A stretch of 64,000 nucleotides of DNA, taken from NCBI GenBank assembly GCA_023269235.1, contig JAHFTW010000003.1:165999-229998 (forward strand), in the 5' to 3' direction. The stretch comes from Thermoplasmata archaeon (lineage in GTDB: Archaea; Thermoplasmatota; E2; JACPAO01; JAHFTW01). The position numbers and the translations under genes are program-made. Under the pieces are notes generated by a model. It worked only from the letters and a program-made list of their open reading frames with translations, ran no database searches and was not told the origin of the DNA. Each line of letters opens with the position of its first letter. Positions within the stretch are counted from its first letter, which is position 1. Below are positions 26,172 through 35,465 of this stretch, piece after piece.

Positions 26172-27341
26172 ATGGCCTCTGGACGTCGCATCGCCGGCAC
26201 CATCCTGATCATCCTCGCGGTGCTCCTCACCGTCGGCTTCGGCGCCCTCGTGTACGACCAGACCGGCGGCTCGAACGTGCTCGGCCTGGACGCCGACCTC
26301 GCGGGCTACATCATGGCTGGCGTCCTGGGCGCAATCGTCGTCGTCCTCTTCCTGCTCATCGTCGTCCACCACCGCGCCCGTCGGGCCCGTCGCATCGCCG
26401 CCCAGACCGTCGCCGCCGAGCCCCTGCCCGAGGCCGAGGTGGAGTTCACCGAGGTCGCGCCCAGCACCCCGCTCGCCAAGGCGGCCGCCTCGGAGCCCGA
26501 CGCGGGCGAGCCGAGCGGCCCCGAGGTCGTCGTGTACGACCTGCCGCAGGTGCAAGCCGCCTACCGTTCCTTCGAGCGCGCGGACGGCGCGGCCACCTTC
26601 ACCTACCCGCGCACCGTCGCTTCCGCGGTCTACACCAACGACCACCTCGATGTCGGCAACCAGCACGTCAAGGTCCGCACCCTGCTCGCCGGCCCAGCCG
26701 ACGTCGGGCCCATCCCGGACGACCAGGCGGCCCCGGTGCCGCTCTCCCTCGGCCCCGACGACGTGCCCGAACCCTACCGCTCGAGGCTGTTCCGCGCTCC
26801 GAAGGCCTCCAAGATCTCCCCGACGGGCAAGGCCGCCGACGGCGACGCCTTCGTGGCCAAGCTCGCGGAGGCCCGCACCGCCGCCAAGCCCAAGCCCCGC
26901 GCCGGCCCCTCCTACTACGGCTACTCCGGCGACGTCCACCCGGTCGAGGACATCGAAGGCATCGGCGCCATCTACGGCGACAAGCTGCGCAAGGCCGGCG
27001 TGTACACGACCGACCGCCTCTGCTACGAGAAGCCGCAAACACTCGCCGACAAGGTGGGCGTCCCCCGCAAGACCGCCGAGACCTGGCAGCACATGGCCGA
27101 GCTCGTCAAGATCAAGGGCGTCGGCCCCCAGTACGCCGAGGCCATGGCGCGCGCTGGCATCCGCGGCATCGCCGACCTCAAGCGCCGCAGCGCGGCCGGC
27201 ATCGCCGACCAGGTCACCGGCTACCTCGACTCCCTGAACGCCACCGTCGTCGGCACCGCCGTCACGGAGGCCCGCGTCGCCAACTGGCAGAAGGCCGCGG
27301 CGCGCATGAAGCGCGTCCGTCTCAAGGTCCCCGAGCAATAG
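26172..27341 (+). CDS. Membrane-anchored protein with C-terminal DUF4332-like tandem helix-hairpin-helix
   Basis: Two N-terminal TM helices are followed by an A/P-rich linker and then 'VEDIEGIGAIYGDKLRKAGVYTTDRL...IKGVGPQYAEAMARAGIRGIADL'. Confidence 0.65.
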   Translation: MASGRRIAGTILIILAVLLTVGFGALVYDQTGGSNVLGLDADLAGYIMAGVLGAIVVVLFLLIVVHHRARRARRIAAQTVAAEPLPEAEVEFTEVAPSTPLAKAAASEPDAGEPSGPEVVVYDLPQVQAAYRSFERADGAATFTYPRTVASAVYTNDHLDVGNQHVKVRTLLAGPADVGPIPDDQAAPVPLSLGPDDVPEPYRSRLFRAPKASKISPTGKAADGDAFVAKLAEARTAAKPKPRAGPSYYGYSGDVHPVEDIEGIGAIYGDKLRKAGVYTTDRLCYEKPQTLADKVGVPRKTAETWQHMAELVKIKGVGPQYAEAMARAGIRGIADLKRRSAAGIADQVTGYLDSLNATVVGTAVTEARVANWQKAAARMKRVRLKVPEQ

Positions 27342-28434
27342 GCGGAAGCCCAACGCGGCGCACGGGTGCGGCCGGTTGCGGCGCCCGTCGCGGCGGCACG
27401 GTCGCCGGCATCGCCATGGGCAGGATGGGCAGCTCGCCGAGCGTGAGCTGGCGCGTCGGCTCCGGCAACGGCGCCGTCACCCACTCGAAGGGCGGGTTGA
27501 AGAACGGCCGGCTCAGGACGAGGCCGAGCTTTCGGAAGGCGGTGTCCAGCTCGGCACGCCAGGCTGCCTGCCGGTCGTTGGAGGCGAAGAACTTCGTGAG
27601 GTCCTCCCACGGTCCGCCGCGCAGGCGTTCCCAGAGTGGCGCGAGGACGGTCTGCTTGCGGTCGAGCCCCTTCGAGTTGACCCACTGCGCTCCGGCGTCC
27701 AGGAAAGTGCGCGCCACCGCGTCGGCGTCGTGCGTCGTCGGCGGGCAGGCGGGCGTGTAGTTGGCGAACGTGCTGATGCCCGAGTCGGAGAGCTTGCGAA
27801 GGGCGCGTAGGCGGGCGGGGATCGCGGGCGCGGCGGGCTCGAGGACGCGGCGCACTTGGTCGTCGAGCGTCGGGACGCTCAGGCCCACGCGGATCTGGCT
27901 GAACTGCGTGAAGAGGTCCAAGTCCCGAAGCACGAGGGGGCTGCGGGTGAGGACCTCGACGGGCCAGTCGCGGCGGGCGAGGATCTCTAGGCACTTGCGC
28001 GTGATGCGGTGCTCGGCCTCCGCGGGCTGGTACGGGTCGGTCGCCGTGGAGAGGTAGGTCGTGTGCTTGAGGCCGGCCTTCTCCGCCTTCGCGACGGCGC
28101 GGGCAAGGCGCGTCGGCAGGTCGCGTTTCACCACGACGTAGCTGCCCCAGCGTTTGCGTTCCGCATGGATGGTGTCGGGGACGTAGCAGTAGGCGCAGGC
28201 GTGCAGGCAGCCCGCGTACGGGTTCAGCGACCACGCCTCCTTTGTGATGTGGCCGCCCATCGTGAAGTCGGTGAGGCCGCCGGCGCCGTCGGACTCGAGC
28301 ACCTTGCAGAGGCCGTACGAATCGCGCCCCAGGCCGTCAGCGCCCCTCTGGGCGTCGTCGAGGGACAGCTGGGACAGGTCGTGCGCCCGGCGGAGCATCG
28401 GGTGGACCGTGTCGTTGCGGTAGTCCATCGGCAT
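27322..28434 (-). CDS. Radical SAM enzyme, spore-photoproduct-lyase-like (COG1533 / SplB 'DNA repair photolyase' family)
   Basis: 'NPYAGCLHACAYCYVPD' is the atypical CxxxCxxC cluster of the SPL/COG1533 family; the 370 aa length fits. Confidence 0.75.
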   Translation of the reverse strand: MPMDYRNDTVHPMLRRAHDLSQLSLDDAQRGADGLGRDSYGLCKVLESDGAGGLTDFTMGGHITKEAWSLNPYAGCLHACAYCYVPDTIHAERKRWGSYVVVKRDLPTRLARAVAKAEKAGLKHTTYLSTATDPYQPAEAEHRITRKCLEILARRDWPVEVLTRSPLVLRDLDLFTQFSQIRVGLSVPTLDDQVRRVLEPAAPAIPARLRALRKLSDSGISTFANYTPACPPTTHDADAVARTFLDAGAQWVNSKGLDRKQTVLAPLWERLRGGPWEDLTKFFASNDRQAAWRAELDTAFRKLGLVLSRPFFNPPFEWVTAPLPEPTRQLTLGELPILPMAMPATVPPRRAPQPAAPVRRVGLPPIARGP

Positions 28435-28544
28435 ACCGTCGCATGGGGCCGCAGCAGGTTTTACGGCTTGGAGGGGGTCGGCGAAGATGCCGAATCCGTT
28501 ACCGGATCCGGCACCGCTTTCAACGATGGGGTGTGTGGGCCCGC

Positions 28545-29225
28545 GTGGCCGGCGTCATCGGTCTGCGGGGCCCCGACATCGAGAAACGCGATGCCCTTCG
28601 CGGGTACCAGGTCGTGTTCAAGGACGCGGACCGCCCCATCATCCGGCCTCACACGGGTCTGCCGGTTCTCTTCGTCGACGACGGCAAGGCGAAGGTCGAC
28701 CGTCACGTGTTCGGGTTCAGCCGCCGCTTCAGCAGCTTCAACGCCCGCGACGACAAACTGGAGGAAGGCAAACTCTGGATGGGCATGTTCGGCAAGGCGG
28801 GCCACCACGGCGTCGCTCCCGTGTCCTACATCCTGGAATGGTCGGAGTTCTCGGGTGAGAAACTGCCGTACCGCATCGAGCGCGCCGACGGCGCCGCCAT
28901 GTGCGTCCCCTCCCTCGTCGGCCGTTACTGGGAGGCCAAGGACACGCGTGCGGTGGCGCTCGTCACGATCACGCCCAACCCGTTCGTCGCCCGCTTCCAC
29001 GACCGCATGATCGGTCAGCTCGACGACCAGCACGTCGACGTCTGGCTCCACCCCGAAGACCACACTAAGGCCGAGCTTCGCGCCTGCCTCAAGGCGCCGT
29101 CGAACGATGACCTTGTCGCCATCCCGATCCAGGCCGACGTCGGCTCCGCCAAGTTCAGCGACACGTCCGCCCTCGAGGCCACCGGCAAGCCCCTCACGTG
29201 GAAGGACATCAAGGGGGCAAGTTGA
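28545..29225 (+). CDS. SRAP (SOS-response-associated peptidase, DUF159/YedK/HMCES) homolog, paralog 1, with Cys2 replaced by Ala
   Basis: 'FNARDDKLEEGKLW', 'ALVTITPNP' and 'FHDRMIGQL...VWLHPED' match the YedK 'INARVETA', 'LIVTAAA' and 'IHDRRPLVL' motifs. The start was taken at in-frame GTG 28545 by alignment with paralog 2 ('MAGVIGL' against 'MAGLIGL'). No Cys occurs near the N-terminus. Confidence 0.6.
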   Translation: MAGVIGLRGPDIEKRDALRGYQVVFKDADRPIIRPHTGLPVLFVDDGKAKVDRHVFGFSRRFSSFNARDDKLEEGKLWMGMFGKAGHHGVAPVSYILEWSEFSGEKLPYRIERADGAAMCVPSLVGRYWEAKDTRAVALVTITPNPFVARFHDRMIGQLDDQHVDVWLHPEDHTKAELRACLKAPSNDDLVAIPIQADVGSAKFSDTSALEATGKPLTWKDIKGAS

Positions 29226-29884
29226 TGGCCGGCTTGATCGGGCTCAAGAGCTCCGACATCGAGATCCAGGACGCGCTCCAGGTGACCAAGTTCGACTACG
29301 AAGGCAACTGGATTCCGCACCCCGTCGTCCGCCTCACCACGACGCTCCCCGTCGCCATCAACCGGGATGGCGAGCGCGTCGCGGTCCGCGCCCGCTGGGG
29401 CTTCCCCATCGGCGGAGGCCGCCCCGTCGGCAACTCGCGCGACGACAAGCTCGAAGTGAGCCCGATGTGGAAGAGCATGCTCGCGAAGAGCCCCTGCCTG
29501 GTCGCGGCGACTGGGGTCTATGAGCAGGCCGTCGTGGATGGCGAGAAACGGAATCTCTGGTTCCGCCGGCGCGATGGCAAGCCCATCGTCATGCCCGGCT
29601 TCGCGGCCCCGCGCACCTTCGACGGCGAGGCGCGGCTTTGCTGCAGCATCATCACGACGGAGCCGAACAAGTACTTCGGACGCTTTCACCCCCGGCAGGT
29701 CTGCGTCGTCAACCGCAAGGAGGCCGATGCCTGGATGGGCGCCACCACGCCGAAGGAGGCATTGGCCGTCCTGCACGCCCCGGCGGAGACGGAATGGGAA
29801 GCGGTCCCCGTCGATGGACGCATCTTCAAACCAGGACGCGTCGAGATGGAGCACCTCGTCCAGCTCGGACCCCCGATTCCGTAG
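29225..29884 (+). CDS. SRAP (DUF159/YedK) homolog, paralog 2, N-terminus 'MAGL' instead of 'MCGR'
   Basis: 'MAGLIGLKSSDIEIQDA...NSRDDKLEVSPMWKSM...FHPRQVCVV'. The ATG overlaps the paralog 1 stop (TGATG). The 3' end overlaps the convergent polB-like gene by about 59 nt. Confidence 0.65.
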   Translation: MAGLIGLKSSDIEIQDALQVTKFDYEGNWIPHPVVRLTTTLPVAINRDGERVAVRARWGFPIGGGRPVGNSRDDKLEVSPMWKSMLAKSPCLVAATGVYEQAVVDGEKRNLWFRRRDGKPIVMPGFAAPRTFDGEARLCCSIITTEPNKYFGRFHPRQVCVVNRKEADAWMGATTPKEALAVLHAPAETEWEAVPVDGRIFKPGRVEMEHLVQLGPPIP

Positions 29885-32198
29885 CCTGTTCGGGCCGTCT
29901 CGTGCGACCCATGAGCCACGCGACCAGGCCCTCCTCGGTGTATCCAAGAGGCGAGAACAGCGTCTCCGTCATGCGCGCGACGAGGCGGATGTAGGCGTCC
30001 ACGTCGTAGGTCTCCTGGGGCGACCCGAACCACGGCGAGCCTTGGCCCAGAAGCTCGACGGGGGTGACGCGGCCACGCCACGGGCCTTCGGTGCGGGTGA
30101 TGACGTACTTCACGTACTCCCCGGGGCGCCGCTCGGTGCCCGCGTTGCGCAGCGCCCACAGCGCGGCCTTGGTGCCCGTGTTGGAGGTGTACTCCTCGAC
30201 GGCCATGCGTGCTTGCACCATGAGGCCCAGGTCCTCGGCGCGCACTTCGCGGCGGCGCAGACGGTCGACGGCGCGCTTGGCGACCCGTAGCGCCAGCGGC
30301 ACCCGGGTTCGGAAGCCGGCCGCATCGTCGGCCTCCTGCAGGATGTCGAGCATGCCCTGCTGCACGTCGTAGAGGAACGGCGGCGTGTTGTGGCGCTGCA
30401 CCTCGATGCCGCGCACCTTGAGCTTGCCGTCCTCGAACTTGCCATAGTACCGGTTTGGGACGCCCACCTCGCTCTCCGTCGAGTGCGTCTTGGAGGGCAA
30501 GAGGACGAGCCACTTGTAGACGCCCTCGACGTCCATCGGGACGCCGACCTCCTTGGTGATTTTGCGGGCAATGGCGGCTGCGTCGTCGCGCGTCACGCCG
30601 GGTTTGTGCAGGAAGGCGCAATCGGTGAGCGCGTGGACCATCGTGTACCCCTCGGCCTGGGCGACTTCGCGGGCACGCGTCATGCCGGCGCGGCCATAGC
30701 ATTGGATGCTCTGGTGGACCTCGGCGCACCCGAAGCGCGCGTTGCGGTAACGGAAGTATCCGAAGCAGACGACGCCGAGCGCCTTGTGCTCCGACTTGAT
30801 GGCCTTGGCCTTCGCGCGCCGGTCCGCGTCGAGGTCGGCGCGCTTGAGGACGGCCTTCGCCCAGCGTCGGTGCGACCAGAGACGACGCAGGATCTCTGCC
30901 TGGTGGCCGTAGTGTTTCGTGCAGGTGTGGTAGCCGAGCTCGGGGATGACGGGCCCGTCGGGGCAGCAGCTGCAATTCATGGAGTCGCTGCTAAGGTTGT
31001 GCGCCACGACAAGGCTCGGGTAGTAGCCGGAGAAATCGCAGGCGGCCACGTCGTCGTAGAGGCCGGGCTCGGGGACCATGATCTGGCCGCCGCGGTCCAC
31101 GGCGCACAAGGTGGCGGCGGTCTTCCAGTCCTCCGTGAGGTTGCGCTTCCACGGCAGGGCCACGCCCCAGTCCGTGGCGAGGTCGACCTGCATCTGTTGC
31201 AGTGCGAAGCCCGCGCCGTTGCGGTTCACGTCCTGGGCGCGCCGGTTGGCGACGCGGGCAAGGTAGAGGATGCCGTGGAGGTCCTTGCGGTCGTCCTCGG
31301 AGTCGAGCGTCTTCTTCGCGAGGTCGATGTGCCAACGGCCGCGCAGATAGTAGGCGTGCGTCTTGTAGAGCCAGCGCCCGTAGGTGTGGATGCTCTTGCC
31401 CGCCTGGTCCGGCCGGTCCGGGGCCGGGTCGGGGGCGCGCCCGAGCCAGACTCCCTCGCGCAGTCCGAGCGCCTGGATGCGCGTCAGCAGGAACGGGATG
31501 TCGAAGCGATCGCCGTGCCGCGTGACCAGGACATCGGGGTCGTTCTGGCGGAGGAACCGGTCCAAGCCCAGGAGGGTGGCGCGTTCGGCGTCGGGGTCGC
31601 CGGGTTTAGGGCAGACGAGTTCTTGGTCGCCGAGCGTGATGGATTCCAAGGGGTCCGTGAAGGCGGGCGCGTGGCCGACTTGCCGGGCATGGACTTCCAG
31701 GCGCACGACGCGAAGGTCGGGGTCGGGATAATCGACGGTCCAGCGATCGTCCTCGGGATGCGGCTTCAGCTCCGGCCCGTCGGGGCCGACCACAAGGCGG
31801 CACATGCTCCACAAGCCCTGTTCGTGCATCCAACGGCACTCTTGGCTATGATCCACGTCGAAGAAGAGGAAGCCCTTCGTGTGCGTGCGGCGTCGCAGGT
31901 CGGTGGCGATGCTCCAGGTGTCCTGGAAGCGCTTGGGCTTGACCCGCAGAACCTCCTGGGCCGGGCCGCGCAACCAGAGGCTCGCCGTGTCGCGCCACAC
32001 CGCCTCGACGCGCTTGTCCTCCGCGAGGAGCCGTTGGGCGGCCTCCAGCGGCTCTTGGTCGCTGGCGACGCAGAAGCTAGGCTGGTACGGGACGTAGCGC
32101 TTCGTGGTCTGCAAGCCGTGTTTGACCCAGACGACCAAGCAGGAGCGGGTCGGGTGGGTGGACACGTCGAGCAACCAGGCCTGCGTTGGCGAGGGCAT
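29826..32198 (-). CDS. Family B DNA polymerase paralog with degenerate polymerase motifs (likely inactivated or divergent PolB)
   Basis: It aligns along its length with archaeal PolB (reference residues recalled from memory of Pfu Pol). The N-terminal domain ('AWLLDVSTH..CLVVWVK..YQPSFCVA') and motif A ('DFSGYYPSLVVAHNLSSDS') are clear. Motif B reads 'HKALGVVCFGY' where KxxxNSxYG is expected (the NS positions are VV). Motif C reads 'VHALTDCAF' where YGDTDS/YADTDG is expected (first Asp is Leu). The KKRY position reads 'SKTHS'. The Exo I position reads 'FFDVDHSQE' for 'FDIET'. The start was taken at ATG 32198 ('MPSPTQAWLLDV'); the upstream S/T/P-rich extension was rejected. Confidence 0.7.
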   Translation of the reverse strand: MPSPTQAWLLDVSTHPTRSCLVVWVKHGLQTTKRYVPYQPSFCVASDQEPLEAAQRLLAEDKRVEAVWRDTASLWLRGPAQEVLRVKPKRFQDTWSIATDLRRRTHTKGFLFFDVDHSQECRWMHEQGLWSMCRLVVGPDGPELKPHPEDDRWTVDYPDPDLRVVRLEVHARQVGHAPAFTDPLESITLGDQELVCPKPGDPDAERATLLGLDRFLRQNDPDVLVTRHGDRFDIPFLLTRIQALGLREGVWLGRAPDPAPDRPDQAGKSIHTYGRWLYKTHAYYLRGRWHIDLAKKTLDSEDDRKDLHGILYLARVANRRAQDVNRNGAGFALQQMQVDLATDWGVALPWKRNLTEDWKTAATLCAVDRGGQIMVPEPGLYDDVAACDFSGYYPSLVVAHNLSSDSMNCSCCPDGPVIPELGYHTCTKHYGHQAEILRRLWSHRRWAKAVLKRADLDADRRAKAKAIKSEHKALGVVCFGYFRYRNARFGCAEVHQSIQCYGRAGMTRAREVAQAEGYTMVHALTDCAFLHKPGVTRDDAAAIARKITKEVGVPMDVEGVYKWLVLLPSKTHSTESEVGVPNRYYGKFEDGKLKVRGIEVQRHNTPPFLYDVQQGMLDILQEADDAAGFRTRVPLALRVAKRAVDRLRRREVRAEDLGLMVQARMAVEEYTSNTGTKAALWALRNAGTERRPGEYVKYVITRTEGPWRGRVTPVELLGQGSPWFGSPQETYDVDAYIRLVARMTETLFSPLGYTEEGLVAWLMGRTRRPEQATESGVRAGRGAPSRRVLV

Positions 32199-32469
32199 CG
32201 AGGGCCTCCTGGAGGTCTTTCTTGAGCAGGTCCAGCTCCCGGCCTTGGTCGTCCATGAGGCGCATGCCTTCGAGGAGCATGGCGAGCATGACGGGCCGTT
32301 CGAAGTCCATGTGGGGGCGGCGGTTGATGGCGTTGGAGTGGCGGCGGGCGCGGCAGACGAGCTCGTCGAACCACGCCTGCTCCCGGGGTTGGAGTTCGCT
32401 GCGGAACTGCGCGTAGCGTTGCGTGAACGTGTCAAGGGCAATGGTGGTGGTGGGAGTGCTTTGGCCCAT
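32077..32469 (-). CDS. Hypothetical small protein (130 aa) immediately upstream of the polB-like gene
   Basis: Protein-like composition ('FDELVCRARRHSN...ELDLLKKDLQEALDALANAGL'), while the antisense frame is G/A/V-rich junk. The 3' end overlaps the proposed polB-like start by 122 nt, so either its end or the polB start is uncertain. Confidence 0.4.
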   Translation of the reverse strand: MGQSTPTTTIALDTFTQRYAQFRSELQPREQAWFDELVCRARRHSNAINRRPHMDFERPVMLAMLLEGMRLMDDQGRELDLLKKDLQEALDALANAGLVARRVHPPDPLLLGRLGQTRLADHEALRPVPA

Positions 32470-32490
32470 GGGGCACCTTAGGAGAAAGGC

Positions 32491-33195
32491 CTAGGCGGCG
32501 AGGGGTTTTGGGAGTCTGCGTGGGGGCAGTGAAACCACGAGCTCCGGCTCCTCCGGGACGAAGTCGAGCAGGGTCACGCGGCGGCGCAGGCTGGGGTCGA
32601 GGATGACGCCGGCGTCACTCGTCGCCCTCCACCGGTCCGCGACCGGCTGCGCGACCCAGCGGGCGTCCACGCCGTCGTGCGTCGCCTGCGCGAGAGCGGG
32701 GTGGCTCTTCCACCACCGTGGCATGTCCACGCCGAGCAGGATGGGAACGTGGAAGCGGCGTGCCGTCTTGGCGAGGTGGGCGAGGCTGAAGCGCGTGTAG
32801 TCCTCCTGCTCCCAGTCCTGGATCTCCTCGTGGCTCCACAACCGGTCGAAAGGATTGACGACGACGAGACCCGTTTCGCCCTCGCCCAGCTTGAGGTCCA
32901 GGTGGCGCGTGAGGACGGTGTCCCATTGGAACGGCGTCATGCAACGCTTGACGAGGAGCCGGTCGGCGCCATCGTCGGCGGCGTGGCCCCGCGTCATTTG
33001 CAACTCGGCCTGGTCGTAGGGGTTGAAGCTGTGGTCGCCGTCGCACCACAGGACATTTCCGGGCCGTTCACGCAGCGCGGTGTACGCGATCTCTTGGAAG
33101 AACTGCGCGAGGTGGCGGCCCTTCGCGCTCACCAGGGTGAGGCGGTCGGGCTCCAGGAACGTCGACCACACAACGTCCCGTGGTCGGCGGAGCAT
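32491..33195 (-). CDS. Hypothetical protein (234 aa), first gene of the polB-like cluster
   Basis: 'MLRRPRDVVWSTFLEPDRLTLVSAKGRHL...LWCDGDHSFNPYDQ...LVVVNPFDRLWSHEE...' has ordinary composition, strong GC3 bias and no recognisable motif. Its ATG at 33195 lies 21 nt upstream of the next ORF. Confidence 0.55.
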   Translation of the reverse strand: MLRRPRDVVWSTFLEPDRLTLVSAKGRHLAQFFQEIAYTALRERPGNVLWCDGDHSFNPYDQAELQMTRGHAADDGADRLLVKRCMTPFQWDTVLTRHLDLKLGEGETGLVVVNPFDRLWSHEEIQDWEQEDYTRFSLAHLAKTARRFHVPILLGVDMPRWWKSHPALAQATHDGVDARWVAQPVADRWRATSDAGVILDPSLRRRVTLLDFVPEEPELVVSLPPRRLPKPLAA

Positions 33196-33283
33196 GGAAA
33201 CCCTGGCTTGGGGTGAGTGAAGATGCCGAAACTGGTAGCAGACAGGCGACCTCGCGGCGACCCCGCACCCCTTAAATCCCAGC

Positions 33284-33769
33284 ATGGGAAGCAGGCCTTT
33301 GGCGATGACGGAAAGTGCCCTGCGACCCATGGGGGAGAGGGCGGCGCTCTCCTTCCACGAGGCCATCCGGCGCATCGTCGCTCCCGGCGCCCCGGCCGGC
33401 CTCCACCCCGACCTGGAGCTCGCCCTCGCCATCCCACTCAACGCGGTGTGCGAGCGCCTCAAGGGACAGCCCGGGCTGACCCGGGACCGCCTCGTCGAGG
33501 AGGCCCGCCAGCCGTACGTCGAGCAGCTGCTCGCCGCGACCGGGGCAGCACCCGCCGGCCTCCTCCTGGCCGCCGACAGCCTCGCCGTCGGCTTCGGCGC
33601 CGGCCGCGTCGTGCGCGACCTCGCGCGCCCCGGCCGCCTAGTCCTCCTCCCGGCGGCCCCGTCCCCTCCGGGTGCCTTCGTCCGTCTCCTGAACGCCATC
33701 CTTGACGGCCTGCCCGACCTGCCTGACATGCCGGCGAAGGCCGCCCGCGACGACCCCAGTTACGCTTAA
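33284..33769 (+). CDS. Hypothetical protein (161 aa), divergent from the polB-like cluster
   Basis: Strong GC3 codon bias; 'MGSRPLAMTESALRPMGERAALSFHEAIRRIV...'; no motif. Overlapping minus-strand ORFs look like junk. Confidence 0.45.
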   Translation: MGSRPLAMTESALRPMGERAALSFHEAIRRIVAPGAPAGLHPDLELALAIPLNAVCERLKGQPGLTRDRLVEEARQPYVEQLLAATGAAPAGLLLAADSLAVGFGAGRVVRDLARPGRLVLLPAAPSPPGAFVRLLNAILDGLPDLPDMPAKAARDDPSYA

Positions 33770-33793: not shown

Positions 33794-34327
33794 ATGAGCA
33801 CCCGCTTGATCCTGACCGCCACCCTCGTCCTTGCCTTCGCGGTCATGCCCTCCGCGTCCGCCTTGCCGGGGGACCTGAGCCCGGTTGAGAACCTCGCCGT
33901 CGTCACCAAGGCGAAGGGCAACGTCTTGAGCTGGAGCTACCCCGCCGACGTCAAGGCCAGGGACGTCGCGAGCATCGAGATCTGGCGCTTCGACGGCCTG
34001 AGCACCGGCACCTTCGTCGCGCAGGCGCACGGCAAGCACACCACCTACACGGACACCGCCTCCACGAACCCCGACGCGCTCTACACAATGCGCTACGTCA
34101 CGAAGGACGGCGACCAGAGCAGCTTCAGCGACGCCCGCAGTGCCCACTACCCGTACTGTGACGTCTTCGTCGTCGGTCTCCGGGCACCGTACATCGTCGG
34201 CCCCTACGATGACTGCCTCGTCCCGCTCCCGGTGCCCATCGTCGGCCCAATCCTGGACCCGACCGCCCAGCCAACGATTTACTCCGTCCAGAAGATCATC
34301 GCGAGCATCGTGAACAGCAACGAGTAG
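33794..34327 (+). CDS. Secreted protein with fibronectin-III/Ig-like fold
   Basis: A signal peptide ('MSTRLILTATLVLAFAVMPSASA|LPG') is followed by the 'LSWSYPAD...IEIWRFDG...YTMRYVTKDGDQS' beta-sandwich pattern. Confidence 0.65.
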   Translation: MSTRLILTATLVLAFAVMPSASALPGDLSPVENLAVVTKAKGNVLSWSYPADVKARDVASIEIWRFDGLSTGTFVAQAHGKHTTYTDTASTNPDALYTMRYVTKDGDQSSFSDARSAHYPYCDVFVVGLRAPYIVGPYDDCLVPLPVPIVGPILDPTAQPTIYSVQKIIASIVNSNE

Positions 34328-34331
34328 ACGC

Positions 34332-35465
34332 ATGGGTCGCACGCCTAGCCTCATCTTCCTGGCCCTCCTCGGCTCCGTCCTCCTGGCGGGCGCGGGGGCG
34401 CAAGCCGCGCCGACCCTCACCGCTGACCGCCTCGACCTGCGTGGTTCGTTCACGGTCGCCGGCCCGGCCGCCTACTTCCTCGATGACCCCAAGATGGACG
34501 CCTCCAAGCTCAACTTCCAGATGACGGCGGCCCGCATGGACGTCGAGGTGGACACCGCCGCCGCCAGCGCAAGCCTGCTGCACATCGTCGCGACCCCGGG
34601 GGATCAGACCACCGCGTCGTGGAGCCGCTCCAACGTGGAGCTCACAAGTCGGGGCAATGACGCCTACAGCGAGTTCGCGGTTCTGGCCAACGACGGCGCC
34701 CGCGTAGAGGGAGAGGCCTCATGCCTGGGCGTCGTCGCCGGGTCCACGGTCCGCGCCATCCACGAACGGGCCAACATGGGGCGCCCCGACGTCGTCCTGC
34801 CAAACACCCCGCTCCTTTCGCTGGGCGGCTGCGCGCAGACGCTGACCCTCCACGGCGACTTCCGCTTCGTGTTCTGGGGCTGGAAGCTGCACAGCCAGGA
34901 CGCCTCAGGCCAGGCCGATGACATCACGACCGGCGTCGAGACCACCGCCGGCTCCGAGGACACCATTGCCCTGCAGACCAAGCAGCAGGCCTACATCACC
35001 GCGCACGACGCCACTCTCACCCTCCGCCTCCCTGCCTCGCCGCGCTGGTCCCTTGCCTCGGCAAGTCTAGACCTGTTGGGCGACGGTTTGCTTGCTCTCC
35101 GCGACGCGAAAGGCGACATCACCCTCGACGGCCAGAGTAGCCCCCTCCCGGCCGGGGACACCACGATGACCCTCACCCAGGGCGCGCTCCTGCTCGCCCC
35201 GCACGATGGCCGCGTGGGCGGCGCGGTTCGCGGCACGTCCATGGCGCAGTCGCAGGCCGTCTCGTCCCTCACGGACCTGATGGGCACGGGGGTCGGCGCC
35301 GTGGGCTTGGTGCTCTGCGCGGCCGTCGTCGTCTACCTCGTCCGCGTGGTCAGGTCCCTTCGCAACTCCGAGGAGCCGGCCCTTGCGTCCGGCCCTTTTG
35401 AGGCCGCGAAGGCAGAGTTCGCCTCCCTGTTCGACGCCCTCCCGGACGCCAAGGGCCGCGCCTAA
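34332..35465 (+). CDS. Secreted, C-terminally membrane-anchored surface protein
   Basis: A signal peptide ('MGRTPSLIFLALLGSVLLAGAGAQA|AP') and a C-terminal TM ('VGAVGLVLCAAVVVYLVRVVRSLRNSEE'). It starts 4 nt after the previous gene. Confidence 0.65.
   Translation: MGRTPSLIFLALLGSVLLAGAGAQAAPTLTADRLDLRGSFTVAGPAAYFLDDPKMDASKLNFQMTAARMDVEVDTAAASASLLHIVATPGDQTTASWSRSNVELTSRGNDAYSEFAVLANDGARVEGEASCLGVVAGSTVRAIHERANMGRPDVVLPNTPLLSLGGCAQTLTLHGDFRFVFWGWKLHSQDASGQADDITTGVETTAGSEDTIALQTKQQAYITAHDATLTLRLPASPRWSLASASLDLLGDGLLALRDAKGDITLDGQSSPLPAGDTTMTLTQGALLLAPHDGRVGGAVRGTSMAQSQAVSSLTDLMGTGVGAVGLVLCAAVVVYLVRVVRSLRNSEEPALASGPFEAAKAEFASLFDALPDAKGRA

Follow-up and report, generated by a model that had tools for sequence, protein, structure and literature searches.

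Within the 64,000-nt stretch of Thermoplasmata archaeon DNA analyzed here (the window), a compact island carries seven credible ORFs by our own count: a radical SAM gene, two tandem SRAP genes, three co-oriented genes that include a family-B DNA polymerase, and an orphan ORF, together with two copies of a short repeat element (Table 1). An earlier note on this DNA had reported a cluster of eight genes; the cluster stands, as do the gene coordinates apart from refined starts, but the count does not. HMM searches bear out its assignment of a radical SAM protein, two tandem SRAPs, and a PolB (PF04055, PF02586, and PF00136/PF03104, respectively). The start of SRAP1 was moved from 28443 to a GTG at 28545. 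The ATG of SRAP2 overlaps the stop codon of SRAP1, and its 3′ end overlaps the convergent 3′ end of polB2 by 59 nt. The full polymerase reading frame spans 29826-32441(-), and its start was placed at the ATG at 32198, which is preceded by an AGGAGG Shine-Dalgarno sequence; the last 122 nt of the PPB2 ORF therefore overlap polB2. Codon bias within this overlap tracks the polB2 frame. The PPB2 gene was missed by public gene callers.

Table 1. Genes and repeat elements of the island, in window coordinates.
Feature	Coordinates	Strand	Basis or remark
Radical SAM gene	27322..28434	(-)	PF04055
SRAP1, "type A" without Cys2, starts MAGVIGLRGPDIEKRDALRGY	28545..29225	(+)	PF02586
SRAP2, "type B" without Cys2, starts MAGLIGL	29225..29884	(+)	PF02586
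PolB2, B-family translesion DNA polymerase, 790 aa	29826..32198	(-)	PF00136, PF03104
PPB2 (arCOG07300 / DUF8156), 130 aa	32077..32469	(-)	Profile homology
iRadA, inactivated RadA/Rad51-like, about 234-235 aa	32491..33195	(-)	Profile homology
Orphan ORF, 154 or 161 aa	33305..33769	(+)	Coding-like GC by codon position
Repeat element copy 1	28474..28506	(+)	Tentative shared regulatory site; radical SAM gene/SRAP1 intergenic
Repeat element copy 2	33210..33242	(+)	Tentative; iRadA/161-aa orphan ORF intergenic

Taken together, the locus is mostly the described archaeal PolB2 damage-tolerance polymerase operon, beside which lies a conserved SRAP pair, with the cross-linking cysteine changed to alanine, that is apparently absent from the literature. 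SRAP and radical SAM proteins also occur among phage protein families (phrog_1599, phrog_13321), as might be expected if the cluster were a mobile or anti-phage defense island. These matches, however, involve only generic SRAP, radical SAM, and polymerase families, and no PADLOC system was found, the sole match being to the polymerase part of an intein/homing-endonuclease model. Moreover, the flanks consist of housekeeping genes (Kae1, Bud32, Ham1, AspRS, ribosomal protein S15, and a DHH phosphoesterase), GC content is uniform, and neither the ORFs nor the gene calls within 10 kb include an integrase or a transposase. A defense or mobile origin is thus exceedingly unlikely.

Sequence comparison identifies the pair of ORFs preceding the polymerase gene as iRadA and PPB2; together with PolB2, these make up an operon already in the literature, the iRadA-PPB2-PolB2 "mutasome" (Makarova et al., 2014, PMC4104785; Timinskas et al., 2025, PMC11791011). 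The putative iRadA matches an HMM built from 66 distant-clade homologs (E = 6e-21), its family profile (A3) reaches RadA/Rad51 structures (1pzn, E = 5e-17), and PF08423 scores above its cut-off in 4 of 10 family members. Its Walker A GKT is replaced, with GxxxxGKT aligning to a non-conserved stretch (RLTLVSAKGRHLAQ in the window), the helical N-terminal domain is missing, and its C-terminal RRVTLLDFV is similar to the motif for PCNA binding reported in iRadA. PPB2 in turn matches an HMM of 67 distant-clade homologs (E = 3.4e-15) and is 66% identical to a 130-aa protein of the close relative L088 that carries PF26485. The N-terminal arm that is MGRT in published PPB2 reads MGQS here, a variant lacking the Arg3 contact of that paper. 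Of 85 PolB2 loci surveyed in archaea and bacteria, 74 have an iRadA homolog upstream of the polymerase gene and co-oriented with it, and 77 have a PPB2 homolog directly upstream, so that the adjacent, co-oriented gene order (group 1a) seen here is that of 74-77 of the 85. The two upstream ORFs do belong with the polymerase, and the proposal of a DNA-lesion-tolerance module is supported. The arrangement is not, on the other hand, an undescribed one: beyond the operon itself, SRAP has been tabulated as enriched near polB2, in 134 of 1823 neighborhoods (PMC11791011). Of the three unknowns for which the earlier note gave coordinates, the remaining one is the 161-aa ORF, for which no homolog was found.

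Because the clustering of iRadA, PPB2, PolB2, and the two SRAPs recurs across many genomes, it lies far beyond chance. The radical SAM gene and the 161-aa ORF are different: their clustering with the module does not recur in related loci, and neighborhood conservation extends to part of the island only. The radical SAM protein matches PF04055 (E = 1.5e-14), with the CxxxCxxC motif (CLHACAYC) inside the match. The domain call was right, but membership in the SPL family is not borne out, at 15 bits against a TIGR03886 cut-off of 437.55. The best NCBIfam matches are PA0069 (140 bits, cut-off 360) and Rv2578c (104 bits, cut-off 430). No PDB sequence matched at E ≤ 0.1, and the only two at E ≤ 1 were glycosidases, with no SPL structure among them. 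A homolog was found neither in the 85 PolB2 loci nor in 27 SRAP-anchored loci (L091-L117), and none is listed in the neighborhoods of the three closest relatives. We regard the gene as of the COG1533/PA0069/Rv2578c type and probably an incidental neighbor. The orphan ORF (161 aa) is probably incidental as well: it matches only itself among 5.8 billion proteins, has no homolog in related loci, and gives a single-sequence AlphaFold2 model with a pLDDT of 54.

The two repeat copies could nevertheless suggest that all seven or eight genes, radical SAM and orphan ORF included, form one co-regulated damage regulon in this organism, controlled through that element. The element belongs to repeat family D7 (33 nt, with similarity reaching about 42 nt), and the 64 kb contain just two exact copies of its 12-mer core, GAAGATGCCGAA, where 0.25 chance matches with up to one mismatch are expected. 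Both copies lie in divergent intergenic regions in the same orientation, and an element common to both divergent promoters could mean co-regulation of the radical SAM gene and the orphan ORF with the module. Generic Radical_SAM domains are also found in 65 of 1823 published polB2 neighborhoods (PMC11791011). The element is not conserved in relatives, however, nor was an equivalent shared element found within the relatives' loci; the radical SAM homolog occurs in none of approximately 120 PolB2/SRAP loci, and the orphan ORF has no homolog. Additionally, the region holds about 60 chance-level repeat families, and for one of them to fall in both intergenic regions is only modestly unlikely (about 0.05, our own estimate). 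A regulon spanning the whole island is accordingly improbable, though less so than a defense origin.

The SRAP pair is apparently the new part of the locus. Both proteins are confidently assigned to PF02586 (cut-off 27.1 bits), SRAP1 at E = 1.8e-20 (73.8 bits) and SRAP2 at E = 1.2e-24 (87.5 bits). The SRAP Cys2, nucleophile of the thiazolidine DNA-protein cross-link, has been called "absolutely conserved" (Aravind, 2013). As the earlier note had observed, neither protein here has it: both start M-A-G, with alanine in place of Cys2. Both keep the Asn, Glu, and His equivalent to YedK N75, E105, and H160, as do SRAP2 orthologs, while the canonical RYN(V/I)AP DNA-binding motif has diverged in both, and both lack the C-terminal PIP-like tail found in many relatives. 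The SRAP1 orthologous group comprises at least 120 Thermoplasmatota sequences. Of 121 that were aligned, 119 cover the column in question; all 119 have Ala2 and a start-capable codon directly 5′ of the Ala codon, and every one of the 121 keeps N66, R68, E98, W99, H152, and R154. For SRAP2, only three 50%-identity clusters score below E = 1e-30 among 1.84 billion representative proteins. An AlphaFold2 model of SRAP1 (pLDDT 88.7) superposes on YedK/HMCES structures, including 8d2m, with TM scores of 0.73-0.77, and each of the 21 significant PDB matches is to an SRAP protein; residues 1-3 have a pLDDT below 50, so that the placement of Ala2 in the active site is a presumed one.

The type A SRAP adjoins PolB2, in convergent orientation, on nine of nine informative metagenome contigs, and is adjacent to it in loci L001, L007, L008, L012, and L091 as well; the PolB2 and type A match lists share 20 exact coincidences in contig size. 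SRAP2 orthologs starting MAGLIGL adjoin PolB2 in L001, L006, L096, L102, L103, L105, and L108. L091 holds three Ala2 SRAP paralogs and one canonical copy, and an N-terminally truncated type B copy is found there. In more distant PolB2 loci the SRAPs are of the canonical MC-start kind. The PolB2 operon of three close relatives (L088, L089, and L090) has no SRAP next to it, and the SRAPs are therefore accessory rather than obligatory. The missing nucleophile, the diverged RYNxAP motif, and the absence from some close relatives would all fit decaying pseudo-enzymes, or simple ssDNA binders with neither abasic (AP)-site chemistry nor a tie to PolB2. Decay is hard to reconcile, however, with the invariance of Ala2, Gly3, Asn, Arg, Glu, Trp, His, and Arg in about 120 sequences whose overall identity is 62-81%, with adjacency to polB2 on every informative contig, or with expansion to three Ala2 paralogs plus a canonical copy in L091, and we consider it very unlikely. 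The two SRAPs belong instead to lineage-specific Thermoplasmatota subfamilies in which alanine has been fixed in place of the thiazolidine-forming Cys2.

The polymerase was identified by PF00136 (E = 2.5e-18) and PF03104 (E = 4.4e-6) and by a sequence match to archaeal PolB structures (E = 4e-37). Its motif C, HALTDC, has LTD where Pyrococcus and KOD PolB have DTD, and motif B KxxxNSxYG has become KALGVVCFG, in which the Lys is kept and N, S, and Y are replaced. No variation is seen in the second motif C Asp (D526) among 10 diverse homologs, or in the motif A Asp and motif B Lys family-wide; the family's conserved CxCC...C cluster is present here too. Sequence comparison of the exonuclease motifs gave DVD for the Exo I DxE (N-V-D or N-C-D in relatives), His for Asn in Exo II with FD kept, and no clear Exo III YxxxD, which at the sequence level would fit a decayed proofreading site. 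The substitutions listed in the earlier note are thus real, but do not denote an altered enzyme in the sense intended, since loss of the first DxD Asp is the PolB2 family signature. According to the account of Sulfolobus PolB2/Dpo2 reviewed in PMC11791011, that protein has IID at the motif C position and works as a polymerase, and targeted mutagenesis depends on it; the same account gives DNA-damage induction and translesion activity of PolB2 as known only for Sulfolobales. Given the invariance of these three residues of motifs A, B, and C, and the reported activity of Sulfolobus PolB2 with the same xxD motif, PolB2 here is likely active as a polymerase, by analogy.

These observations bear on the first proposal made for the island, that AP-site binders incapable of crosslinking serve as lesion marks and bring in a PolB paralog that is catalytically dead and purely structural. 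It draws on the absence of Cys2 from both SRAPs, on the replacement of the first motif C Asp and of the motif B N, S, and Y, and on earlier literature in which the PolB2 family was long predicted inactive. Conversely, the metal-ligand Asp pair (motif A and second motif C) and the motif B Lys never vary within the family, and Sulfolobus PolB2, altered in the same way, reportedly functions in translesion synthesis as an active enzyme; a purely structural role for a protein bearing the PolB2 signature is thus not the best reading. As for the SRAPs, they would indeed form no stable cross-link, but they retain the residues that drive Schiff-base formation, and inert binding is therefore unlikely. 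The proposal as a whole has only a slight chance of being correct.

The chemistry expected of such SRAPs can be gauged from an engineered protein. YedK C2A forms a Schiff base through its N-terminal Ala and cleaves AP-DNA, an activity lowered approximately 25-fold by E105Q and 2.5-fold by H160Q, and PDB 8d2m is its Schiff-base complex (Paulin et al., 2022, PMC9436759). With Ala2 for Cys2, the thiazolidine cross-link cannot form; since YedK C2A is limited to Schiff-base and AP-lyase chemistry, we predict by analogy that the window SRAPs capture or cleave AP sites transiently in the service of PolB2 bypass, with reversible imine or lyase activity in place of a stable covalent adduct. SRAP1 and SRAP2 are translationally coupled and converge on the 3′ end of the operon. 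After removal of the Met, the N-terminal Ala amine would attack an AP site in ssDNA; ring opening at the abasic site and Schiff-base formation would fall to the Asn, Glu, and His, and the product would be a reversible imine only. The operon itself would supply a B-family translesion polymerase complexed with a PPB2 trimer and one inactivated RadA, the PIP-like C-terminus of iRadA being the probable tether of the complex to PCNA; this architecture and the presumed damage-inducibility come from the literature on homologs, and both polymerase activity and complex formation at this locus are extrapolations based on Sulfolobus and on published AlphaFold models. Among outcomes for the SRAPs, we tentatively favor, at somewhat less than even confidence, a transient capture that spares the AP site a long-lived DNA-protein cross-link and leaves PolB2 bypass possible. 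The main alternative, β-elimination, which would make them natural ssDNA AP lyases like YedK C2A, is possible, if rather doubtful. Overall, the locus is very probably a PolB2 mutasome operon joined by a convergent, cysteine-less SRAP pair with a predicted imine-only AP chemistry, to the exclusion of the radical SAM gene and the orphan ORF.

Several known systems resemble parts of the locus. Like the published PolB2 mutasome, it has the three genes in the same order and on one strand and has lost the first DxD Asp; its iRadA is a RadA without Walker A or N-terminal domain and with a PIP-like C-terminus, its PPB2 is a small partner with an MG... N-terminus and a helicity taken from the family, and an SRAP lies nearby, as in published PolB2 neighborhoods. 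It differs in the MGQS arm in place of MGRT, the 122-nt PPB2/polB2 overlap, the absence of orc1/cdc6 nearby, and SRAPs that are cysteine-less and duplicated. The radical SAM protein shares with SPL and COG1533 (PA0069/Rv2578c) the radical SAM core, CxxxCxxC, and its best NCBIfam matches, yet falls far under every curated cut-off and is unlinked to the module in relatives. With E. coli YedK and human HMCES, the SRAPs have in common the fold (TM 0.73-0.77), size, Asn/Glu/His in register, and an N-terminal residue directly after the initiator Met, but they have Ala2 rather than Cys and a diverged RYNxAP. They are closer in this respect to YedK C2A, with its N-terminal Ala and intact Glu and His, and 8d2m is among the top structural matches. 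That protein, however, is a laboratory mutant, whereas the Ala considered here is evolutionarily fixed, in two or three paralogous lines, and has a translesion polymerase linked to it; the activity is a predicted one. SRAP genes are known neighbors of bacterial SOS translesion modules (Aravind, 2013). Pol V (UmuD'2C-RecA) and ImuA-ImuB-DnaE2 likewise combine a specialized polymerase with a RecA-family subunit and a small accessory protein, but their polymerases belong to families Y and C rather than B, so that the resemblance is an analogy between systems whose catalytic subunits are not homologous.

The earlier note had described window 27322-33769 as a single island of DNA-lesion genes with altered enzyme homologs. 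The window has a GC content of roughly 70% and comes from a 239-kb contig of a Thermoplasmatota metagenome-assembled genome; housekeeping genes flank the region, with Kae1, Bud32, Ham1 and AspRS on one side and ribosomal protein S15 and a DHH/DHHA1 phosphoesterase on the other. The sequence had been described accurately apart from the start sites of SRAP1 and PolB, which are corrected in the table, and the count of eight genes. Seven genes are credible, all of them sharing the GC3-rich codon usage that genuine genes have in this genome, and the radical SAM, SRAP and PolB assignments held throughout. The SRAP2 and polB2 genes are convergent, their 3' ends overlapping by 59 nt (window 29826-29884), and similar tail-to-tail overlaps of a SRAP gene and polB2 occur in relatives' loci L100, L101, L105 and L108.

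Credible genes of the region, in window positions
Feature	Position	Strand	Gene model and domain evidence
Radical SAM	27322-28434	-	Above Pfam gathering threshold
SRAP1	28545-29225	+	GTG start 28545; SRAP domain above Pfam gathering threshold
SRAP2	29225-29884	+	SRAP domain above Pfam gathering threshold
PolB	29826-32198	-	ATG start 32198 after AGGAGG Shine-Dalgarno; Pfam polymerase and exonuclease domains above gathering thresholds
130-aa ORF (PPB2)	32077-32469	-	No direct Pfam or NCBIfam match
234-aa ORF (iRadA)	32491-33195	-	No direct Pfam or NCBIfam match
154/161-aa orphan ORF	33305 or 33284 to 33769	+	No direct Pfam or NCBIfam match

Three ORFs of the region had been presented as unknowns, and two of them are accounted for by known families. 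Through alignment of PolB, 80 loci were fetched from species-representative genomes, and six-frame ORFs of the PolB2 loci (85 counted) were searched using both the window proteins and iterated profiles. In L004, where the PolB homolog is 34% identical, a Rad51-family gene and a DUF8156 gene precede the polymerase gene. Of the 85 PolB2 loci, 74 have a homolog of the 234-aa protein and 77 have one of the 130-aa protein, most often in the order 234-aa, 130-aa, PolB on one strand, directly upstream of the polymerase; most loci lacking either homolog are cut by a contig end. Profiles built from distant clades only still match the window proteins (E=6e-21 for the 234-aa and E=3.4e-15 for the 130-aa protein). 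The 234-aa family profile matches RadA, Rad51 and DMC1 structures (1pzn, E=5e-17), with non-conserved residues at the Walker A position, and four of ten family members reach PF08423, while the 130-aa protein is 66% identical to a relative's protein annotated as PF26485 (DUF8156). The Pfam copy used gave no PF26485 match even for the L088 protein that carries this annotation, so the model is probably absent from that copy; membership in both families rests on iterated profiles and identity to annotated relatives. By these sequence criteria, the two "unknowns" and the polymerase are an iRadA-PPB2-PolB2 operon, an arrangement noted first by Makarova and Koonin, analysed by Makarova et al. (2014), and given a heteropentameric "mutasome" model in Timinskas et al. 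(2025; PMC11791011).

The window iRadA ends in a PIP-like RRVTLLDFV. The PPB2 frame extends 122 nt into polB2 (window 32077-32198), where codon bias follows polB2; shorter overlaps are present in L001 (~118 nt), L088 (56 nt) and L089 (32 nt). PPB2 goes uncalled by public gene callers here and in some relatives (L001, for example); this overlap is the presumed cause. Annotation is thereby corrected for a lineage in which PPB2 was missed and iRadA and PPB2 were listed as "hypothetical." In L001:6141-7031, a locus whose PolB2 is 68% identical, a Schlafen/AlbA_2-domain gene lies between iRadA and PPB2.

The polymerase itself had been tentatively read as a structural paralog, with substitutions noted at catalytic and dNTP-binding positions. 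The substitutions are real. Aligned with Pyrococcus and Thermococcus PolB structures (E about 1e-37), motif A is DFSGYYPS with its Asp retained, motif B is KALGVVCFG with Lys retained and N, S and Y altered, and motif C is LTD in place of DTD. However, the motif A Asp, D526 (the second Asp of motif C) and K472 (the motif B Lys) are invariant in ten homologs of 33-67% identity, and loss of the first Asp of DxD is a hallmark of the PolB2 family, with IID at that position in S. islandicus PolB2 (PMC11791011). The exonuclease motifs appear degenerate, in keeping with descriptions of the family: DVD stands in place of DxE, and no clear Exo III was found. PolB2 is reported to be an active, damage-induced polymerase on which targeted mutagenesis depends and which extends mismatched termini (work reviewed in PMC11791011). 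On its retained catalytic residues and by analogy with these enzymes, the window PolB2 is probably not a dead paralog. Two further features were seen in this family. An invariant CxCC...C cluster lies between motifs A and B in the ten PolB2 homologs (residues 409-426, about window 30921-30974), and could form a metal site that builds on the disulfide pair found in archaeal PolB. Annotations in many relatives split PolB2 into an N-terminal fragment of ~450 aa and a longer C-terminal piece, or give a protein of 999 aa (L012:2296-8587; proteins P0030, P0101, P0106, P0116 and P0071-P0086), and the two pieces in L012 are 2.2 kb apart; this suggests an intein or insertion near residue 450 in these relatives.

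Both window SRAPs start M-A-G where YedK has M-C-G, confirming the loss of Cys2 noted earlier, and alignment with YedK shows that both retain the active-site Asn, Glu and His. When every SRAP in the PolB2 loci was aligned, the distant loci L003, L014, L016, L017, L030, L033 and L078 proved to encode canonical SRAPs with an MC start; the C-terminus is intact in all of them except L078 and the truncated L003 copy, and where intact it finishes with a PIP-like QxxL(F/L). Loci with PolB2 at least 63% identical to that of the window carry SRAPs starting (M/V)AG, and two conserved types can be told apart among these: type A (MAGVIGLRGPDIEKRDALRGY), which SRAP1 resembles, and type B (MAGLIGL..DIEIQDAL), which SRAP2 resembles. 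Against 5.8 billion proteins SRAP1 matched 141 clusters, and the 120 of these that were listed are 62-100% identical, the named ones bearing Thermoplasmatota or related archaeal labels. In the alignment of these listed matches, Ala2 and Gly3 are each present in 119 of 119, the preceding column is always start-capable (97 Met, 20 Val, 2 Leu), and N66, R68, E98, W99, H152 and R154 are invariant (121/121). For SRAP2, 1.84 billion cluster representatives were scanned exhaustively with HMMER; only three clusters fell below E=1e-30, and the best 150 matches included 108 with an MC start and about six from MAG-type lines. The AlphaFold2 model of SRAP1 (pLDDT 88.7, pTM 0.88; first residues low-confidence) matches SRAP structures only, at TM 0.73-0.77, among them the YedK C2A Schiff-base complex (8d2m). 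The RYNxAP motif has diverged in the cysteine-less SRAPs. Many type-A proteins (P0274-P0310) end in RQATL, GQQTL or QSTLEF, resembling a C-terminal PCNA-binding motif that is absent from window SRAP1 and SRAP2.

These SRAPs are linked to polB2. Scanning metagenome contigs with the type-A alignment gave 14 orthologous loci of at least 62% identity, and in every one of the nine with sufficient flank PolB2 follows directly downstream in convergent orientation, often with a tail-to-tail overlap; the remaining five contigs do not exceed 5.2 kb. The same adjacency occurs in L001, L007, L008 and L012, and 20 exact coincidences of contig size between the PolB2 and SRAP-A match lists lend independent support. 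Beside PolB2 in L091:1-3188 are four tandem SRAPs: type B, a canonical VCGR protein, a third Ala2 type (VAGLEGID start) and type A. A canonical SRAP also occurs together with Ala2 SRAPs in L006. Since PolB2 is not adjacent to a distant Ala2 line (P0196-like, 38-44% identity), and the close relatives L088, L089 and L090 have the PolB2 operon without any SRAP, the SRAPs are an accessory of the PolB2 operon, lineage-specific and frequent but not obligatory.

Conservation of the neighbourhood among relatives thus holds for iRadA, PPB2, PolB2 and the SRAPs but not for the remaining two genes. The radical SAM protein, whose CxxxCxxC is intact, falls far short of the PA0069, Rv2578c and SPL cut-offs and matched only two glycosidases in the PDB at E<=1. 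Phmmer searches of six-frame ORFs found no homolog in the 85 PolB2 loci or in 27 SRAP-anchored loci, nor was the gene present in the L088, L089 and L090 neighbourhoods, and it was dropped as a member of the system. It is abutted by a gene for a membrane-anchored DUF4332/helix-hairpin-helix protein (window 26172-27341; convergent overlap 20 nt), which had no phmmer match in the other 85 loci; a shorter DUF4332 protein directly follows PolB2 in L089:12460-13155. The orphan ORF matched only itself among 5.8 billion proteins, its single-sequence AlphaFold2 model is low-confidence (pLDDT 54), and it was rejected as well. Two adjoining ORFs of 177 and 377 aa at window 33794-35465 match no family and have N-termini that resemble signal peptides or transmembrane segments; they probably encode surface proteins that have nothing to do with the module. 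A defence-system library gave no signature, and there was no evidence of a mobile element, phage-family matches being confined to generic SRAP, radical SAM and polymerase families.

Small room for co-regulation in this genome is left by a similar 33-42 nt element at 28474-28506 and 33210-33242, in the same orientation, within the two divergent intergenic regions (radical SAM/SRAP1 and iRadA/orphan ORF). Its exact 12-mer core, GAAGATGCCGAA, occurs only at these sites in the 64 kb, and the element may be a shared operator or promoter site. In relatives it did not prove to be conserved, whether sought by its exact core, through a consensus of 25 positions, or by comparing the regions upstream of iRadA and SRAP within each locus. 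Scans for sigma-70 promoters and intrinsic terminators, uninformative for an archaeon, found nothing.

In HMCES and YedK, the second-residue Cys cross-links abasic sites and so suppresses mutagenic translesion synthesis. YedK uses the alpha-amine of residue 2 to make a Schiff base with the AP site once its ring has opened, after which the Cys thiol closes the stable thiazolidine. Both ring opening and imine formation are driven by Glu105, and His160 assists with the first of these. YedK C2A forms no cross-link, gives a borohydride-trappable imine via its N-terminal Ala, and slowly cleaves DNA by beta-elimination, a lyase activity lowered about 25-fold by E105Q and about 2.5-fold by H160Q (PMC9436759). 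Given fixed Ala2 and invariant Asn, Glu and His, the Ala2 SRAPs are predicted, by analogy with C2A, to keep AP-site recognition and imine chemistry without the trap. As canonical SRAP cross-links block translesion synthesis and these genes are tied to a translesion operon, we tentatively favour transient capture of the AP site, with the lesion left available to PolB2 bypass. Genuine ssDNA AP-lyase activity is the main alternative and somewhat less probable. More speculatively, the C2A state may have been repeatedly fixed, making Ala2 SRAPs dedicated PolB2 mutasome factors. They would hold an ssDNA abasic site as a reversible imine, or cleave it, and then pass it to PolB2, inverting the HMCES/YedK role in that ssDNA abasic sites would not be locked into a bypass-suppressing cross-link; where a canonical Cys2 SRAP is also present (L006 and L091), the two types could act as a switch that selects either error-free shielding or mutagenic bypass.

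Overall, the original observation is confirmed and its interpretation supported in part. The arrangement is not undescribed: both the PolB2 operon core and its SRAP association are already known from published work, which accounts for the island apart from its SRAPs. The window operon fits group 1a of Timinskas et al., its PPB2 starting MGQS as a variant of their MGRT arm, and these authors tabulated SRAP in 134 of 1823 polB2 neighbourhoods (PMC11791011); the portion of their text available for searching makes no mention of SRAP cysteine loss. Our literature search found no naturally cysteine-less SRAPs, which is weak evidence given that most subscription journals fell outside it. What appears to be new is a conserved family of SRAP paralogs that lack the cysteine and are linked to PolB2; it yields a testable biochemical prediction and a testable link from abasic-site handling to the poorly understood PolB2 mutasome. 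The founding SRAP paper called the second-residue cysteine "absolutely conserved"; a well-populated Ala2 family that otherwise keeps the pocket, beside a translesion operon, amounts to a natural experiment in how the SRAP pocket behaves once its thiol trap is gone.
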